Shown here: positions 20,290 to 42,113 of the stretch, piece by piece
Layout: every line of letters begins with the position of its first letter
How positions within the stretch are numbered: position 1 is the first letter of the stretch
DNA from: a virus
DNA: 64,000 nucleotides
Direction: 5' to 3' (one strand)
Virus record (IMG/VR): IMGVR_UViG_3300044970_001685
The notes under the pieces: generated by a model
Databases searched by the model: none
Told to the model about the DNA's origin: nothing
The model's input: only the letters and a program-made list of their open reading frames with translations
Made by a program: the position numbers and the translations under genes

Positions 20290-20884
20290 AACAAAAACTA
20301 CCGCAACAAAGAAACCAGCAGCACCAAAGGCAAAAGTAATTGCAGAAGCGATTCCTGAACTTCCTGCAAATCCTTTTATCTTTGAGATCTTTAATGCTGC
20401 TTCAAAGCAAAGATCTAATGCTAAGAAGGTAGAGGTTCTTCAAAAGTACTCTCATCCTGCTCTTAAAGCATTGTTCATTTGGAATTTTGATGAGACTATC
20501 ACATCAGCACTTCCTCCTGGAGATGTTCCATACTCTGCTGTAAATGAGATGGATTCATTCAAAGGAACTTTGAGTGAAAAGATTGCTGATGCAGTTGAAA
20601 AAATGGAAGAACTTGGTTCTAATTCACTTGGATCACAAGATCAAGGACGTTCTTCTATTCGTAAGGAATATCAAAAGTTTTATAACTTTATCAAAGGTGG
20701 AAACGATGGACTGAGTTCTCTTCGTAGAGAAACGATGTTTATCAACTTGCTTCAAGGTCTACATCCACTAGAAGCAGAGATTATTTGTCTAGTAAAAGAT
20801 AAAAATCTGGAATCAAAATACAAGATTACAAAAGAAATTGCTTCACAAGCATACCCCGATATTATTTGGGGAGGACGTTCGTGA
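20252..20884 (+). CDS. Conserved T4-like cyanophage protein (DUF6433-like)
   Basis: LPPGDVPY...RRETMFI.LL.GLHP.EAE. Confidence 0.7.
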   Translation: MTTTKKTTAATTKTKTTATKKPAAPKAKVIAEAIPELPANPFIFEIFNAASKQRSNAKKVEVLQKYSHPALKALFIWNFDETITSALPPGDVPYSAVNEMDSFKGTLSEKIADAVEKMEELGSNSLGSQDQGRSSIRKEYQKFYNFIKGGNDGLSSLRRETMFINLLQGLHPLEAEIICLVKDKNLESKYKITKEIASQAYPDIIWGGRS

Positions 20885-21219
20885 ATCAAGTTATTGATAA
20901 AGTACAGGAAAAGCACATGGATCATTGGACATCAGCAGAAAAAGAAACTTGTAAGTCACGTTACGGTTGCGAAATTATGATTGAAAATGGTTCATATTCT
21001 GATGTATGTACAAAAGAAGCACCTAATGATGCATACATTATTAAGTATCTTGTAGAAGATAAAATCTGTTTTGACCTTACACGAGGTTCTAAAATTAAAC
21101 TTTTTGATATGTACTGGGATAAGTTTCGTGAGAACTTGAAGAGTATTGACTTTGGATATGGTAGAATCAATCCAAAACTCTGGGGATATAAATCACCCGA
21201 AAAGAAAAAGAGAAAGTGA
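20881..21219 (+). CDS. Conserved cyanophage hypothetical protein
   Basis: GTG start overlapping the upstream stop; FDMYWDK...GYG.INPKLWG. Confidence 0.65.
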   Translation: MNQVIDKVQEKHMDHWTSAEKETCKSRYGCEIMIENGSYSDVCTKEAPNDAYIIKYLVEDKICFDLTRGSKIKLFDMYWDKFRENLKSIDFGYGRINPKLWGYKSPEKKKRK

Positions 21220-21228
21220 TTTCAAAAA

Positions 21229-21257
21229 TGCTGGGAAAAAATCCCGGCAATTTTTTT
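21229..21257 (+). terminator. Intrinsic terminator
   Basis: TGCTGGGA-AAAAA-TCCCGGCA followed by ATTTTTTT. Confidence 0.75.
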
Positions 21258-21279
21258 ACCCCATAAGATTTTATAAAAC

Positions 21280-21295
21280 TGTATCGCATTATACA
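21280..21295. promoter_or_regulatory. NtcA-binding site
   Basis: TGTA-TCGCATTA-TACA matches TGTA-N8-TACA, just upstream of a sigma70 promoter. Confidence 0.7.
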
Positions 21296-21303
21296 GTGTA
21301 AAC

Positions 21304-21332
21304 TTGCTATATACTTTCAATAGGTCTATAAT
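21304..21332 (+). promoter_or_regulatory. sigma70-type promoter
   Basis: TTGCTA-17 nt-TATAAT; predicted TSS ~21339, at the first aptamer base. Confidence 0.8.
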
Positions 21333-21339
21333 GACCTTA

Positions 21340-21390
21340 CGTTCATTCGCTATTTGCGAATAGCGAACGGAAGTAAGCCGACTCGGAACG
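21340..21390 (+). ncRNA. Glutamine riboswitch-like aptamer 1 (glnA/Downstream-peptide class)
   Basis: P1 CGTTC/GAACG; P2 TTCGCTATT-TGCG-AATAGCGAA; joining region CGGAAGTAAGCCGACTCG. Confidence 0.75.
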
Positions 21391-21394
21391 AAGC

Positions 21395-21566
21395 CGTTCA
21401 TCTATGGAAGCATTTTTTTTAACTTGCCTTCAAGCTAATTTTATCATTGGAAGAGTAACTACTCATCCAAGATTAGATGCCCAGCAAAAAAATGATATTG
21501 TTTGGGAAGTAAAGCAAGTTACAAAAAAAGGTTGTTTCATAGACGCAAAAGCCGACTGAAGGAACG
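21395..21566 (+). ncRNA. Glutamine riboswitch-like aptamer 2 with a ~120-nt P2 loop insertion
   Basis: CGTTCA...CGCAAAAGCCGACTGAAGGAACG; P2 TCTATGGAAGCA (21401-12) pairs with TGTTTCATAGA (21533-43). Confidence 0.7.
21404..21559 (+). CDS. 51-aa ORF nested inside aptamer 2
   Basis: MEAFFLTCLQANFIIGRVTTHPRLDAQQKNDIVWEVKQVTKKGCFIDAKAD*. Confidence 0.6.
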   Translation: MEAFFLTCLQANFIIGRVTTHPRLDAQQKNDIVWEVKQVTKKGCFIDAKAD

Positions 21567-21599
21567 CTCTTTAATTTAAAAACCTAAGGAGAAAACCTA

Positions 21600-21737
21600 A
21601 TGTCTAAAGTAGTATATCGCGGCGTTGAATACGATACGCAAAAGCGTTTGGAGTATCAACAGCAGATGATGCAGCAACCCCAACAATACAACGAAACCTA
21701 TCGTGGTGTTAAGTTTGTAAAGGAGGGGCATAAGTGA
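21600..21737 (+). CDS. DUF4278-like peptide, Gln-rich
   Basis: AAGGAG RBS; MSKVVYRGVEYDTQKRLEYQQQMMQQPQQYNETYRGVKFVKEGHK with two YRGV motifs. Confidence 0.8.
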   Translation: MSKVVYRGVEYDTQKRLEYQQQMMQQPQQYNETYRGVKFVKEGHK

Positions 21738-21838
21738 TGAATACTTATTTTGTGCGTTATCTTAAAACAAAAGCAAAGAAGGAAAAACTTCTAAAAGCGG
21801 CTCAAATTAATATGGCAATGCAACCACAAGTTGCTTGA
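21737..21838 (+). CDS. 33-aa basic peptide
   Basis: TGATG coupling to the upstream gene; MNTYFVRYLKTKAKKEKLLKAAQINMAMQPQVA. Confidence 0.6.
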   Translation: MNTYFVRYLKTKAKKEKLLKAAQINMAMQPQVA

Positions 21839-21841
21839 AGT

Positions 21842-21879
21842 AAAGGAGGGTTGATCCCCTCCTTTTTTTATGTTAAAAT
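21842..21879 (+). terminator. Terminator whose loop is the -35 of the next promoter
   Basis: AAAGGAGGG-TTGATC-CCCTCCTTT plus T-tract; TTGATC-17 nt-TAAAAT with a TG extension. Confidence 0.8.
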
Positions 21880-22074: not shown

Positions 22075-22231
22075 TAGAGCAAAAAAACTTGTTAAGTTAC
22101 TTGAAAGACTTGTAAAACAAGAGCATCTCTATACAGCAGAAAAAATCATAGAGATGAAATCACAACTGCGAGTAGTTAAAGAAGAGATCGCAGAATTAGA
22201 AAAGAAAACTTCAAAAGGATTTGGTAAATGA
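22034..22231 (+). CDS. Coiled-coil hypothetical protein
   Basis: Ends KGFGK and is coupled to thyX; true start probably ~22055. Confidence 0.6.
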   Translation: MTKSLKTMMDTRINRAKKLVKLLERLVKQEHLYTAEKIIEMKSQLRVVKEEIAELEKKTSKGFGK

Positions 22232-22863
22232 GCGTAAAACTAATTAGTGTAACACCCGATGCTGAGCAAACAATGGCATATGTTGCTAGGGTCTCTAATC
22301 CTAGTAACCAAGACAATGAGAACTATGCAGGGTTACTGCGTTATTGTATTAAGCATAATCATTGGTCTGTTTTTGAGCAGGCATTTATGACGCTGGAAAT
22401 TGAAACAAATCGTGGTATAGCAGCTCAAATTTTGCGTCATAGATCATTTACATATCAGGAATTTTCGCAACGCTATGCAGATTCATCTCTTCTAGCAGAT
22501 TACATTCCAGTTCCAGATCTTCGTCGTCAGGATACAAAGAATCGACAAAATTCGATTGATGATATTGGAGATTATGAAAAACTAACACTTCAAAGCAAAA
22601 TTCAAGAGCATTTTGCGGAAGGTATGCGCCTCTACAAGGAACTTCTCTCTCACGGAGTGGCAAAGGAGTGTGCAAGGTTTGTATTGCCCTTAGCAACGCC
22701 CACACGTATCTATATGACCGGTTCTTGCAGGTCATGGATACATTATATCAATCTTCGTTCTGCAAACGGAACTCAGAAAGAACATATGGACATTGCTCTG
22801 GAATGTAAGAATGTGTTTTCCGAACAATTCCCAACAGTTGCAGAAGCTCTTGAATGGATCTAA
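22228..22863 (+). CDS. thyX: FAD-dependent thymidylate synthase
   Basis: RHRSFTYQEFSQRY signature. Confidence 0.95.
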   Translation: MSVKLISVTPDAEQTMAYVARVSNPSNQDNENYAGLLRYCIKHNHWSVFEQAFMTLEIETNRGIAAQILRHRSFTYQEFSQRYADSSLLADYIPVPDLRRQDTKNRQNSIDDIGDYEKLTLQSKIQEHFAEGMRLYKELLSHGVAKECARFVLPLATPTRIYMTGSCRSWIHYINLRSANGTQKEHMDIALECKNVFSEQFPTVAEALEWI

Positions 22864-41792: not shown

Positions 41793-41864
41793 GGGAGCAT
41801 AGCTTAATGGTCAGAGCGGCCTGCTTATAACGGGTTAGTCTGGGTTCAACTCCCAGTGTTCCCA
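41793..41864 (+). tRNA. tRNA-Ile(TAT)
   Basis: Acceptor GGGAGCA/TGTTCCC; anticodon arm GCCTG-CTTATAA-CGGGT; TTCAACT T-loop. Confidence 0.9.
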
Positions 41865-41866
41865 TT

Positions 41867-41939
41867 GCTCGTTTAGCAATCTGGTGAATGCACCGATCTC
41901 ATAAATCGGCATAGGTGGGATCGTTCCCCACAACGAGCA
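41867..41939 (+). tRNA. tRNA-Met/Ile2(CAT)
   Basis: GCTCGTT/AACGAGC; CCGAT-CTCATAA-ATCGG; atypical T-loop ATCGTTC. Confidence 0.8.
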
Positions 41940-41941
41940 CT

Positions 41942-42021
41942 TGCCGTGGTTCATAACTTATGATAGAATCCAGTGGGGCATCTATCAAACGGTTTTGATT
42001 TAGTCTCACAAACACACGGCA
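41942..42021 (+). ncRNA. Candidate structured ncRNA in the tRNA cluster
   Basis: Closing stem TGCCGTG/CACGGCA, three internal hairpins and a potential pseudoknot. Confidence 0.5.
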
Positions 42022-42029
42022 TCAAACAA

Positions 42030-42113
42030 GCGAGTATGGTGGAATCGGTAGACACACCAGACTTAAAATCTGTTGGGGGCAACCTCGTGGGAGTTCAAGT
42101 CTCCCTACTCGCA
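42030..42113 (+). tRNA. tRNA-Leu(TAA)
   Basis: GCGAGTA/TACTCGC; CTTAAAA loop; long variable arm; TTCAAGT. Confidence 0.92.

Follow-up and report, generated by a model that had tools for sequence, protein, structure and literature searches.

A putative nitrogen-responsive cassette of T4-like cyanophages with tandem glutamine aptamers, one of them split by a small gene

Nitrogen supply limits cyanobacteria, hence their phages, in numerous lakes and large parts of the ocean, and how lytic phages sense the nitrogen state of their host is an open question. It is addressed here with a short region of the virus record IMGVR_UViG_3300044970_001685, of which a stretch of 64,000 nucleotides (nt), here called the window, was analysed. 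At positions 21229–21879, a first-pass annotation had described a self-contained cassette for nitrogen sensing, consisting of an upstream terminator, a palindrome resembling the binding site of the regulator NtcA, a promoter with its start at the first aptamer base, two glutamine aptamers, three short open reading frames (ORFs) including one for a DUF4278-type peptide, and a closing terminator. According to the comparative analysis presented here, the region is probably a mobile promoter-to-terminator cassette of T4-like cyanophages, which makes the production of two or three micro-proteins dependent on the nitrogen status of the host. The cassette spans 21280–21872 on the plus strand, and its elements are arranged in the order NtcA-type box, promoter, two aptamer units, three ORFs, and terminator.

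The window belongs to a T4-like cyanomyovirus. Between 20000 and 24000, it is 70–77% identical to S-SRM01 (freshwater Synechococcus) and S-SKS1, and several hundred further Synechococcus and Prochlorococcus phage records match the same section. A viral contig collection was scanned with the 3′ core of aptamer 2, which gave at least 120 loci (at least 120 contigs in each such scan). Among the loci listed, 123 instances of the 3′ core were evaluable; the upstream survey covered 82 distinct regions, and a wider sample comprised 99 split and 84 compact aptamer 2 units. The combination of NtcA box, two aptamers, and DUF4278-type peptide recurs in well over 100 cyanomyovirus contigs, so that both the self-contained unit and its conservation across cyanophages, named in the first-pass annotation as a check, are borne out. 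The neighborhoods of the cassette differ between phages (before thyX, after nrdB, after pstS, or after speD); it behaves like a mobile unit, judged by these varying genome positions. A scan of prokaryotic genomes for the aptamer 2 core returned five matches, four of them on contigs of unrelated bins of metagenome-assembled genomes; they were tentatively read as phage DNA rather than host copies. The palindrome, the promoter, the three ORFs (21404–21559, 51 amino acids (aa); 21600–21737, 45 aa; 21737–21838, 33 aa), and the closing terminator were all found as annotated. Two parts of the description had to be amended: the upstream terminator is present, but does not belong to the conserved unit, and the two aptamer units both exist, but are not two ordinary tandem units, since the second is split by the 51-aa ORF.

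The first question concerns the transcriptional input. The palindrome TGTATCGCATTATACA (TGTA-N8-TACA, 21280–21295) is centred at 21287.5, approximately −51.5 from the predicted start. It is the sole TGTA-N8-TACA within the window, where 1.69 are expected, that is, no more than chance; the looser GTA-N8-TAC was found 15 times versus 10.9 expected. The significance of the box is therefore derived from its conserved offset in the relatives and not from its rarity in the window. A GTA-N8-TAC starting 50–75 nt before aptamer 1 was present in 68 of the 82 distinct upstream regions, with 0.94 expected from the background and 0.8 from shuffled sequences. Anywhere in the upstream region it was present in 75 of 82, with the main mode of its start at −58/−59 relative to aptamer 1. 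The logo of the box reads T-GTA-(A/T)-C-A...G-(T/A)-TAC-A, in which GTA, TAC, and the flanking T and A are fixed, as are a few inner positions, while the rest of the N8 is variable. An assessment of the box as an unconserved chance occurrence, for which S-SRM01 with its 9-nt spacer alone had been compared, was overturned by the survey of the 82 regions.

Downstream of the box, a sigma-70-type promoter (21304–21332, plus strand) combines the hexamers TTGCTA (21304–21309) and TATAAT (21327–21332) with a spacer of 17 nt and 10 out of 12 consensus matches; the distance from the end of its −10 hexamer to the aptamer, which begins at 21340, is 7 nt. In the relatives, TTGACT or a near variant is followed by a TAnnnT hexamer (mostly TATAAT), the spacer measures 17 nt in 54 of 79 cases, and 7–10 nt lie between the end of the −10 hexamer and the aptamer. 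Because this −10 position is conserved, the start is predicted to coincide with the aptamer's first base or to lie immediately ahead of it (21339/21340 in the window), in agreement with the first description. The gap between the box and the −35 hexamer is 8 nt in most relatives and 9 nt in the window, and the box centre lies at −50.5 and −51.5, respectively. This is not the geometry of a class II NtcA activator promoter, in which the box at about −41.5 replaces the −35 hexamer and TAN3T follows approximately 22 nt downstream: here, TAC and the −10 hexamer are 32 nt apart, and a good −35 hexamer is present. The caution expressed at the outset, that the centre is off the classic −41.5 position, was thus well founded. 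In Synechocystis, 71% of the NtcA-induced genes have their sites at −41 to −44, whereas the sites of repressed genes are spread from −69 to +83 (PMC5714215), so that the sign of regulation is unreadable from the box position. A weak prior for repression of the phage promoter is given by the host genes, since gifB is repressed by NtcA (PMC6212724, PMC6316151) and the NtcA site of a Prochlorococcus gene for an IF17-like (DUF4278) protein overlaps the start, suggesting repression (PMC6212724).

We consider it unlikely, but worth weighing, that the palindrome is not an NtcA site and serves instead as the operator of a phage or another host dimeric protein or as an upstream element of an early promoter. 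Early promoters of T4-type phages have conserved A/T-rich upstream regions, which would be in line with the last of these options. The 9-nt spacing in S-SRM01 and the position at −51.5 beside complete −35 and −10 hexamers, which is atypical for NtcA activation (PMC5714215), would also fit. However, the conserved phage box has GTA and TAC at a distance of 8 nt, a T and an A on its outer sides, and a variable interior, just as in the published NtcA consensus (PMC6212724, PMC5714215), and a motif that occurs once in 64 kb is no general promoter feature of the window. Moreover, host DUF4278 and gifB genes located behind glutamine riboswitches carry NtcA sites (PMC6212724, PMC6316151), and a study from 2010 predicted NtcA sites in each of its 16 cyanomyovirus genomes, without connecting them to the present element (PMC3037559).

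The −10 hexamer is embedded in an inverted repeat, AGGTC TATAAT GACCT (21322–21337, plus strand). A hairpin of at least 4 bp around the −10 hexamer is shared by 77 of 80 distinct relatives; its stem comes in dozens of sequence versions, and 0–4 nt separate it from the aptamer. Such covariation hints at a structure in RNA or in a single strand, which may insulate the aptamer in read-through transcripts; alternatively, the start may be displaced from the promoter prediction. A different −10 hexamer (TATATA/TATACT, 21308–21315), with a start at about 21321 and the box at about −34, was set aside, as the TTGACT-17-TATAAT geometry and the distance of 7–10 nt are conserved; located 13–15 nt from the box, it is likewise non-canonical. 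For some transcripts, a start near 21321 may nevertheless be possible and would explain an RNA-like hairpin round TATAAT. A second GTA-N8-TAC, GTAAAGCAAGTTAC, lies at 21509–21522 inside the nested ORF; it is not conserved in S-SRM01 and is therefore probably a chance occurrence.

The second question is what the cassette produces. The ORF behind the aptamers encodes a DUF4278-type peptide of 45 aa (21600–21737, plus strand; phrog_5049) that contains the YRG motif twice and is rich in Gln in its central part. The window peptide matched PF14105 over residues 3–38 with 19.1 bits (E 1.7 ∙ 10−3) and did not reach the cut-off of 25.3 bits; all 51 sampled homologues matched the family at E ≤ 0.01 (best 1.2 ∙ 10−7), in support of the original assignment. 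The two motifs read VYRGVEY and TYRGVKF, and Y6, R7, G8, R35, and G36 are invariant in 51 sequences. In 121 loci, a homologous peptide of 35–56 aa (106 distinct sequences, M..V(T/V)YRG..YD...YRG) follows 29–62 nt after aptamer 2. A side observation concerns the Gln-rich stretch QQQMMQQPQQ (window 21651–21683), which is found in the subfamily of the window, is stronger in some relatives (RRQQQQQAQQQPQQ), and is missing in the marine ones. Such a run of Gln codons behind a glutamine sensor could act as a reporter of Gln-tRNA supply.

It had been suggested that the peptides may act on glutamine synthetase (GS), and an IF17-like dosing of the inhibition of host GS would suit several features. IF17 contains DUF4278, gifB lies behind glutamine riboswitches (PMC6212724), the joint NtcA and glutamine logic is that of gifB, and the peptide contains Arg residues and is basic at its end. 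The DUF4278 part, however, is the N-terminal moiety of IF17, which, according to a published report, stabilises IF17 and is not required for its function (PMC6316151). The phage peptide consists of this part alone: it is covered by the DUF4278 match, and its 45 aa leave no room for an IF7-like C-terminal inactivating domain. Homology therefore lends no support to GS inactivation, and this part of the first-pass annotation was not upheld. A search of the PDB with a sequence profile revealed no relative of the YRG peptide. The literature offers another lead, as YRGxxY is also the T-loop motif of PII, which was noted by Weinberg and colleagues (supplement of PMC2864571) and is represented in the window peptide by YRGVEY. 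In view of both sides, GS inhibition as the task of these peptides appears quite unlikely.

The third ORF of the cassette encodes a basic helical micro-protein of 33 aa (21737–21838, plus strand). Its ATG overlaps the preceding stop codon (TGATG), and its Shine–Dalgarno sequence AAGGAGG lies inside the upstream ORF. The counterpart in S-SRM01 is gp019. The TGATG overlap is shared by most relatives, whose third ORF encodes either a basic helix, as in the window, or a hydrophobic peptide; a Pfam or PHROG match was not obtained for this ORF. The unit is closed by an intrinsic terminator (21842–21879, plus strand) with the stem GGAGGG/CCCUCC and a U7 run (hairpin 21842–21865; ΔG −15.3, z −3.95). 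A terminator follows the cassette in 100 of 112 relatives, compared to 8% of random segments. It doubles as the next promoter, with a −35 hexamer TTGATC in the loop, the T-run as spacer, and TAAAAT 17 nt on. Such a composite was identified after the cassette in at least 37 of the 112 relatives under strict criteria (L012–L031 among them).

The third question is whether the RNA between promoter and peptide carries two glutamine sensors. Aptamer 1 (21340–21390, plus strand) is of the compact form and comprises P1 (CGUUC/GAACG), the P1a hairpin (21346–21367), ACGGAAGUA, and GCCGAC. The proposed check against Rfam covariance models had a divided outcome: aptamer 1 matched RF01739 with 30.8 bits (E 1.5 ∙ 10−4 in an 801-nt stretch; reported span 21338–21394; gathering score 35 bits), and aptamer 2 was not reported. 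The support for aptamer 2 therefore comes from the comparative analysis and not from Rfam. Compact homologues scored 33–35 bits against the same model, apart from those of DSL-LC02 (35.6 bits) and P-TIM68 (35.4 bits), which pass. With our own covariance model (R1), built on 29 compact aptamer 2 copies, significant matches in the whole window were limited to two places, aptamer 1 (28.4 bits, E 1.7 ∙ 10−5) and the 3′ core of aptamer 2 (21533–21566, 34 bits, E 4.6 ∙ 10−7). The P1a hairpin of aptamer 1 covaries (pair 7:25 is UA in 38 cases, AU in 8, GC in 3, and CG in 2). P1 and the single-stranded ACG lying in its groove are present in both window aptamers and invariant in all relatives; these are the ligand-contacting nucleotides of the solved structures (PMC6698751). 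Of the E-loop motif, each unit carries one strand: aptamer 1 has ACGGAAGUA but CUCGG for GAAG, while aptamer 2 has GAAG but CAAAA for GAAGUA. P3 has shrunk to G-CCGA-C, and its flanking pair does not covary. The minimum-energy fold prefers a competing pairing of GAACGG (21365–21370, a strand of the aptamer 1 hairpin) with CCGUUC at the 5′ half of aptamer 2 (21394–21399), which may be peculiar to the UUCGC...GCGAA type of hairpin.

Aptamer 2 (21395–21566, plus strand, 172 nt) is split. Its 5′ half CGUUCAUCUAUGGAA (21395–21409) carries the motif CGUUCAUCUAUGG from 21395 onwards, its 3′ half UUUCAUAGA-CGCAAAAGCCGACUGAAGGAACG (21535–21566) contains the partner CAUAGACGCAAAAGCCGACUGAAGGAACG up to 21566, and the 51-aa ORF lies in between, so that P1a closes a loop of approximately 125 nt. 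The linker between the aptamers, AAGC (21391–21394, plus strand), is 4 nt long in the window and 3–6 nt in all relatives; its A21391 stands at the position that is the partner of the aptamer 2 linchpin base in the relatives. Of the 123 evaluable instances, 74 were split, with an insert of 138–215 nt, and 49 compact, with a hairpin of 11–22 nt (43 nt in one case). The 5′ half follows directly on aptamer 1 (linker 3–5 nt) in 72 of the 74 split cases, and since this adjacency fixes its placement, the position of the 5′ half is independent of the stem search. Both halves were present at every evaluable locus, with an invariant CGUUCAU in the 5′ half. The split layout is shared by S-SRM01, DSL-LC02, DSL-LC03, P-SSM4, P-HM2, S-SSM7, P-RSM6, and S-SKS1, and the compact form, with a short hairpin in place of the ORF, occurs in S-PM2, S-CREM1, and P-TIM68.

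Judged by sequence covariation, the closing stem of the split aptamer is maintained by compensatory change. Among 40 distinct combinations, pair 3 of P1a is C-G in 26, U-A in 11, and U-G in 3; pair 4 is C-G in 13, A-U in 10, U-A in 9, and U-G in 8. Pair 5, which was not demanded by the search, is formed in 39 of the 40. The observed stem length of 6.17 compares with a maximum of 5.08 when the partners were re-dealt in 1000 trials, and the closing stem is kept in the 99 split relatives of the wider sample. The hairpin of the compact aptamer 2 covaries as well (pair 64:79 is GC in 17, UA in 17, and CG in 14). An unconstrained minimum-energy fold of 21340–21610 closes the same P1a stem, with the interior of the ORF folded back on itself. 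A local 5′ half suggested by our own model, UGUUUCAU (21533–21540), was rejected as an artefact, because it comes without P1a and the remaining split units do not conserve it. Split units escape the standard covariance-model scans because the models cannot bridge the inserted ORF; given 99 split and 84 compact units, such scans miss more than half of these aptamers.

These data also bear on the possibility that only aptamer 1 works and that aptamer 2 is a decayed copy with an inserted gene, its 5′ half being the start region of the ORF and its 3′ half the leader of the DUF4278 gene. The failure of Rfam to find the second aptamer would be expected in this case, as would the alignment of our own model with the 3′ core alone plus a spurious local 5′ half; besides, a translated 125-nt loop would seldom be folded, and the linchpin within aptamer 2 is C:C in the window. 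A dead copy, on the other hand, should not keep an invariant CGUUCAU, nor a stem to the far 3′ half that is compensated across 40 distinct combinations. The cores of the compact and split forms are identical, and close relatives switch between the two forms, which is likewise true for aptamer 1. In 51 of 51 units, covariation also links the base that follows aptamer 2 to one in aptamer 1, which is unexpected for a dead copy. The decay of aptamer 2 is therefore regarded as very unlikely.

All four combinations of compact and split forms of aptamers 1 and 2 were found among the relatives. Aptamer 1, which holds no ORF in the window, encloses one in P-SSM4 (L006, 790–1025, T4-GC 429), in L007 and L138, and at about 34 further loci. 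The ATG of these ORFs lies in the stem strand UCCUAUG and the stop codon (UGA, UAA, or UAG) at or inside AUAGGA; some of the products start like signal peptides (MTKALLLLAWVPFLFVSAPQASS...).

The fourth question is whether the ORF inside aptamer 2 is a gene. This nested ORF (21404–21559, plus strand, 51 aa) belongs to phrog_504 and corresponds to the gene cluster T4-GC 430 in P-SSM4 and S-SSM7; the deposited records label it as a hypothetical protein. Its AUG lies inside the 5′ strand of P1a, and its stop codon UGA (21557–21559) lies together with the last five codons inside the aptamer core, whose sequence GAC GCA AAA GCC GAC encodes DAKAD. In 73 of 74 split units, the ATG was located 9–11 nt past the C of CGUUCA, and in 71 of 73 nested ORFs the frame set by this ATG ends at the conserved UGA of GACUGAAGG despite loop lengths of 138–195 nt, giving 69 distinct products of 49–66 aa. 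Within a subfamily of 14 members with 51 aa, the pairwise differences by codon position amount to 1435, 739, and 1886, and the synonymous share of the differing codons is 36% in the ORF frame versus 14% and 6% in the other frames, which contain 58 and 67 stops. Indels relative to S-SRM01 are 3 and 6 nt long. Cys8, Cys44, and the core-encoded tail are the only invariant positions across 63 diverse members with a mean column identity of 36%. AlphaFold modelled the protein confidently as a two-helix hairpin (pLDDT 87). By its pattern of substitution, the nested ORF is a real protein-coding gene. That it is untranslated and conserved for its RNA structure alone is hardly credible: the lack of a Shine–Dalgarno sequence, the aptamer-dictated DAKAD tail, and the 9–20 contiguous pairs between the first and last codons in the window subfamily would agree with it, but the third-position bias and synonymous excess restricted to one frame, the stop-filled other frames, the indels in multiples of three, the two invariant Cys residues, the confident fold model, and the frame kept in 71 of 73 cases do not.

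A Foldseek search with the nested protein against the PDB gave no hit at E ≤ 0.001, and only unnamed viral clusters were obtained from the ESM Atlas. All 84 close homologues in a large protein collection end in DAKAD, DAKVD, or DAND, and there is no free-standing family member among them. The core stop triplet (UGA/UAA) is present in 99 of 99 split units; it was rejected as a split-specific feature, because 83 of 84 compact units keep it too, and is rather an aptamer constraint exploited by the ORF. A lipoprotein or signal-peptide reading of the hydrophobic N-terminus followed by Cys was also dismissed: a positive n-region is missing, D, E, or K precedes the Cys, which is preceded by just 7 residues in the window, and the model is a soluble helical hairpin. 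Gene callers often lengthen the nested ORF through aptamer 1 to 64–85 aa (P0007–P0081), with the ATG in TATAATG as start; the frame through aptamer 1 is open in many relatives and closed in the window.

The fifth question is how the two aptamers relate to each other. Glutamine is bound by a CGUUC:GAACG helix capped by a long-range pair, while the hairpins are preformed; the capping pair joins the base after the ACG strand with the base after GGAACG (C19:G41 in glutamine-II and its equivalent in glutamine-I; PMC6698751). These linchpin bases, here termed x (after ACG) and t (after GGAACG), were compared in an alignment of 51 distinct units in which both aptamers are compact. The pair within the aptamer is formed in 34 of 51 units for aptamer 1 and in 34 of 51 for aptamer 2. 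The cross pairs are formed without exception: a1x:a2t in 51 of 51 (CG 30, GC 21) and a2x:a1t in 51 of 51 (GC 45, CG 5, UG 1). In the order a1x, a1t, a2x, a2t, the classes are C,G,C,G; G,G,C,C (the class of the window); G,C,G,C; C,C,G,G (L145); and G,U,G,C. Both within-aptamer pairs are broken and both cross pairs are intact in two separate lineages, namely the window class and L145; in the window itself and in L037, A replaces the second G of the class G,G,C,C. The covariation suggests that the two aptamers form an interlocked double aptamer. The simplest structural reading, put forward as a hypothesis, is that the sequence-identical P1 strands are swapped: the 5′ strand of aptamer 1 would pair with the 3′ strand of aptamer 2, and the 3′ strand of aptamer 1 with the 5′ strand of aptamer 2 as a local hairpin over the 3–6-nt linker. 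In the window, the outer helix would consist of 21340–21344 and 21562–21566 and the inner hairpin of 21386–21390 and 21395–21399. The distribution of the E-loop strands fits such a swap in the window class, aptamer 1 providing the 5′ strand GAAGUA and aptamer 2 the 3′ strand GAAG.

Several points weigh against interlocking. Both within-aptamer linchpins of the window are non-Watson–Crick (G21370:A21391 is G:A, C21546:C21567 is C:C), and of its cross pairs, G21370:C21567 is Watson–Crick, while C21546:A21391 is not. Furthermore, the covariation across the aptamers goes back to about two independent evolutionary events, and because these are few, interlocking is treated here as a hypothesis. The full proposal would be a single interlocked sensor, in which each pocket uses the GGAACG strand of the other, with an ORF inside, acting as a glutamine translational toggle under the control of an NtcA/2-oxoglutarate promoter. 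The start codon would be buried in a stem and the stop codon in a pocket, so that ribosomes and glutamine would compete for the RNA. We hold this proposal to be tentative, conceivable but with the balance of judgement against it. If true, the cassette would be without precedent among natural riboswitches in two respects, namely ligand pockets built from both members of a tandem and a gene enclosed by an aptamer.

For the cassette as a whole, which is the probable reading, the following course of events can be proposed by analogy. The host NtcA–2-oxoglutarate complex would bind the box and modulate early transcription. Glutamine would then stabilise the CGUUC:GAACG helices, as in the solved aptamers, and would turn on translation of the DUF4278 ORF and of the micro-ORF coupled to it, comparable to gifB and PMM1846; the genes for IF17 and PMM1846 are turned on by glutamine riboswitches (PMC6212724, PMC6316151). 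A leader hairpin could take part in this step (21567–21591, plus strand), in which CUCUUU (21567–21572) pairs with the Shine–Dalgarno sequence AAGGAG (21586–21591) of the next ORF; the sequence of the hairpin is conserved in leaders of the window type. Judging from the geometry, folding of the aptamer would bury the nested AUG, and glutamine would lower the translation of the nested ORF, because its AUG is paired in the folded aptamer and it has no Shine–Dalgarno sequence. Conversely, a ribosome on the nested ORF would have to unfold the glutamine pocket. The result would be reciprocal expression, with the nested Cys–Cys helical-hairpin protein made at low glutamine and the YRG peptide and the micro-peptide at high glutamine.

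Against this reading, the following has to be considered. The centre of the box at −51.5 matches neither the activating position (−41 to −44, PMC5714215) nor an overlap with the core promoter, and the hairpin around the −10 hexamer suggests an upstream start for some transcripts. Aptamer 1 stays below the Rfam gathering score (30.8 vs. 35 bits) and is absent from the scan at gathering thresholds, and aptamer 2 as a whole had no covariance-model match in Rfam, even at permissive thresholds. Each aptamer retains one E-loop strand, and P3 is reduced to GCCGAC. The Shine–Dalgarno hairpin is weak, its pairs do not covary, its energy does not exceed that of shuffled sequences (z −0.5), and the marine relatives have another leader. 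The reciprocal control of the nested ORF is deduced purely from the arrangement of the codons, and the two ORFs could instead be positively coupled: a ribosome ending at the UGA would come near CUCUUU (21567–21572) and open the Shine–Dalgarno hairpin.

Some features lie outside the conserved unit. The 5′ neighbor of the cassette in the window is a gene of phrog_485 (20866–21219), which is ended by a terminator-like hairpin, GCUGGGA/UCCCGGC, followed by a T-run (21229–21258, plus strand; hairpin 21229–21249; ΔG −12.9, z −3.1). Such a terminator was found in 6 of 83 relatives versus 4% of random segments and is not conserved. On the 3′ side, small ORFs are followed by thyX (22228–22863). At gathering thresholds, Rfam reported only three transfer RNAs (tRNAs) for the window, which form a cluster at 41793–42113 (66.1, 48.5, and 58.2 bits), the third with a long variable arm. 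In P-SSM4 and P-RSM6, manA RNA matches of 184 and 188 bits (L006, 514–699, and L011, 1437–1622, respectively) were detected within about 0.5 kb of the glutamine cassette, where regulatory RNAs seem to be clustered.

Part of this picture is already known, namely glutamine aptamers of cyanophages, their tandems, the link to DUF4278 in cyanobacteria, and predicted NtcA sites of cyanophages (PMC2864571, PMC6212724, PMC9964418, PMC3037559). In the literature searched, which included few papers from subscription journals, neither the cassette as a unit nor its NtcA box was found to be described, and the same applies to the nested ORFs, the pairing across the aptamers, and the coupled micro-ORF. With its small size and clear boundaries, and being very common in cyanomyoviruses (at least 120 contigs), the cassette would allow the sensing of the host nitrogen state by a lytic phage to be tested on one RNA and three micro-proteins. 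Two points concern RNA biology: a protein gene is housed in a riboswitch aptamer, its start and stop codons belonging to functional regions of the fold, and covariation suggests that tandem aptamers exchange a pocket-capping base pair.

Among known systems, the leader of Synechocystis gifB, which encodes IF17, shares the core CGUUCA-hairpin-ACGG/C...GGAACG, a DUF4278 product downstream, and an NtcA site in the promoter (PMC6212724). In this type 1 glutamine riboswitch, 2-oxoglutarate is sensed at transcription and glutamine at translation, and the same set of elements is found in the phage. The phage-borne version differs in being a tandem instead of a single aptamer, with a reduced P3 and half an E-loop motif per aptamer. 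Its box lies at approximately −51.5 beside a full sigma-70 promoter, whereas the NtcA site of gifB overlaps the promoter. Unlike IF17, the phage product is the DUF4278 part without an IF7-like domain, and the ORF in the aptamer and the coupled micro-ORF are additional.

The Downstream-peptide (glutamine-II) riboswitches, such as yfr6/PMM1846, resemble the cassette in the YRGxxY peptides of 35–60 aa right after the aptamer and in the NtcA motif nearby (PMC2864571, PMC6316151, PMC6698751). The linchpin of the marine phage class is C:G, as in glutamine-II. Glutamine-II, however, is a pseudoknot with P2 formed from the 3′ tail, whereas the phage aptamer 2 scores better as glutamine-I and aptamer 1 is a borderline glutamine-II. 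The host copies of glutamine-II are single, and we found no report of ORFs inside them. In S-CREM1, the annotated 99-nt "riboswitch glnA" (RF01739, PMC9964418) corresponds to the form of the phage tandem in which both aptamers are compact. Published notes on annotated cyanophage glnA RNAs list the motif only.

In the tandem glycine riboswitch, two like aptamers lie side by side, in contact, and serve one expression platform. The phage unit likewise has two adjoining like aptamers (the precedent is cited in PMC2864571), with a different ligand and fold; unlike in the glycine tandem, its covariation suggests an exchanged pair capping the ligand helix and possibly swapped P1 strands. The suggested strand swap recalls the domain-swapped dimer in the crystal of glutamine-II (PMC6698751). 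Finally, an ORF in a helix loop of a structured RNA is also known from group I introns with homing-endonuclease ORFs, which are common in T4-like phages (PMC3984707). There, the ORF is a selfish passenger outside the core, whereas the start and stop codons of the nested phage ORF lie in the stem and in the ligand-binding core, so that translation and RNA function must interfere with each other.

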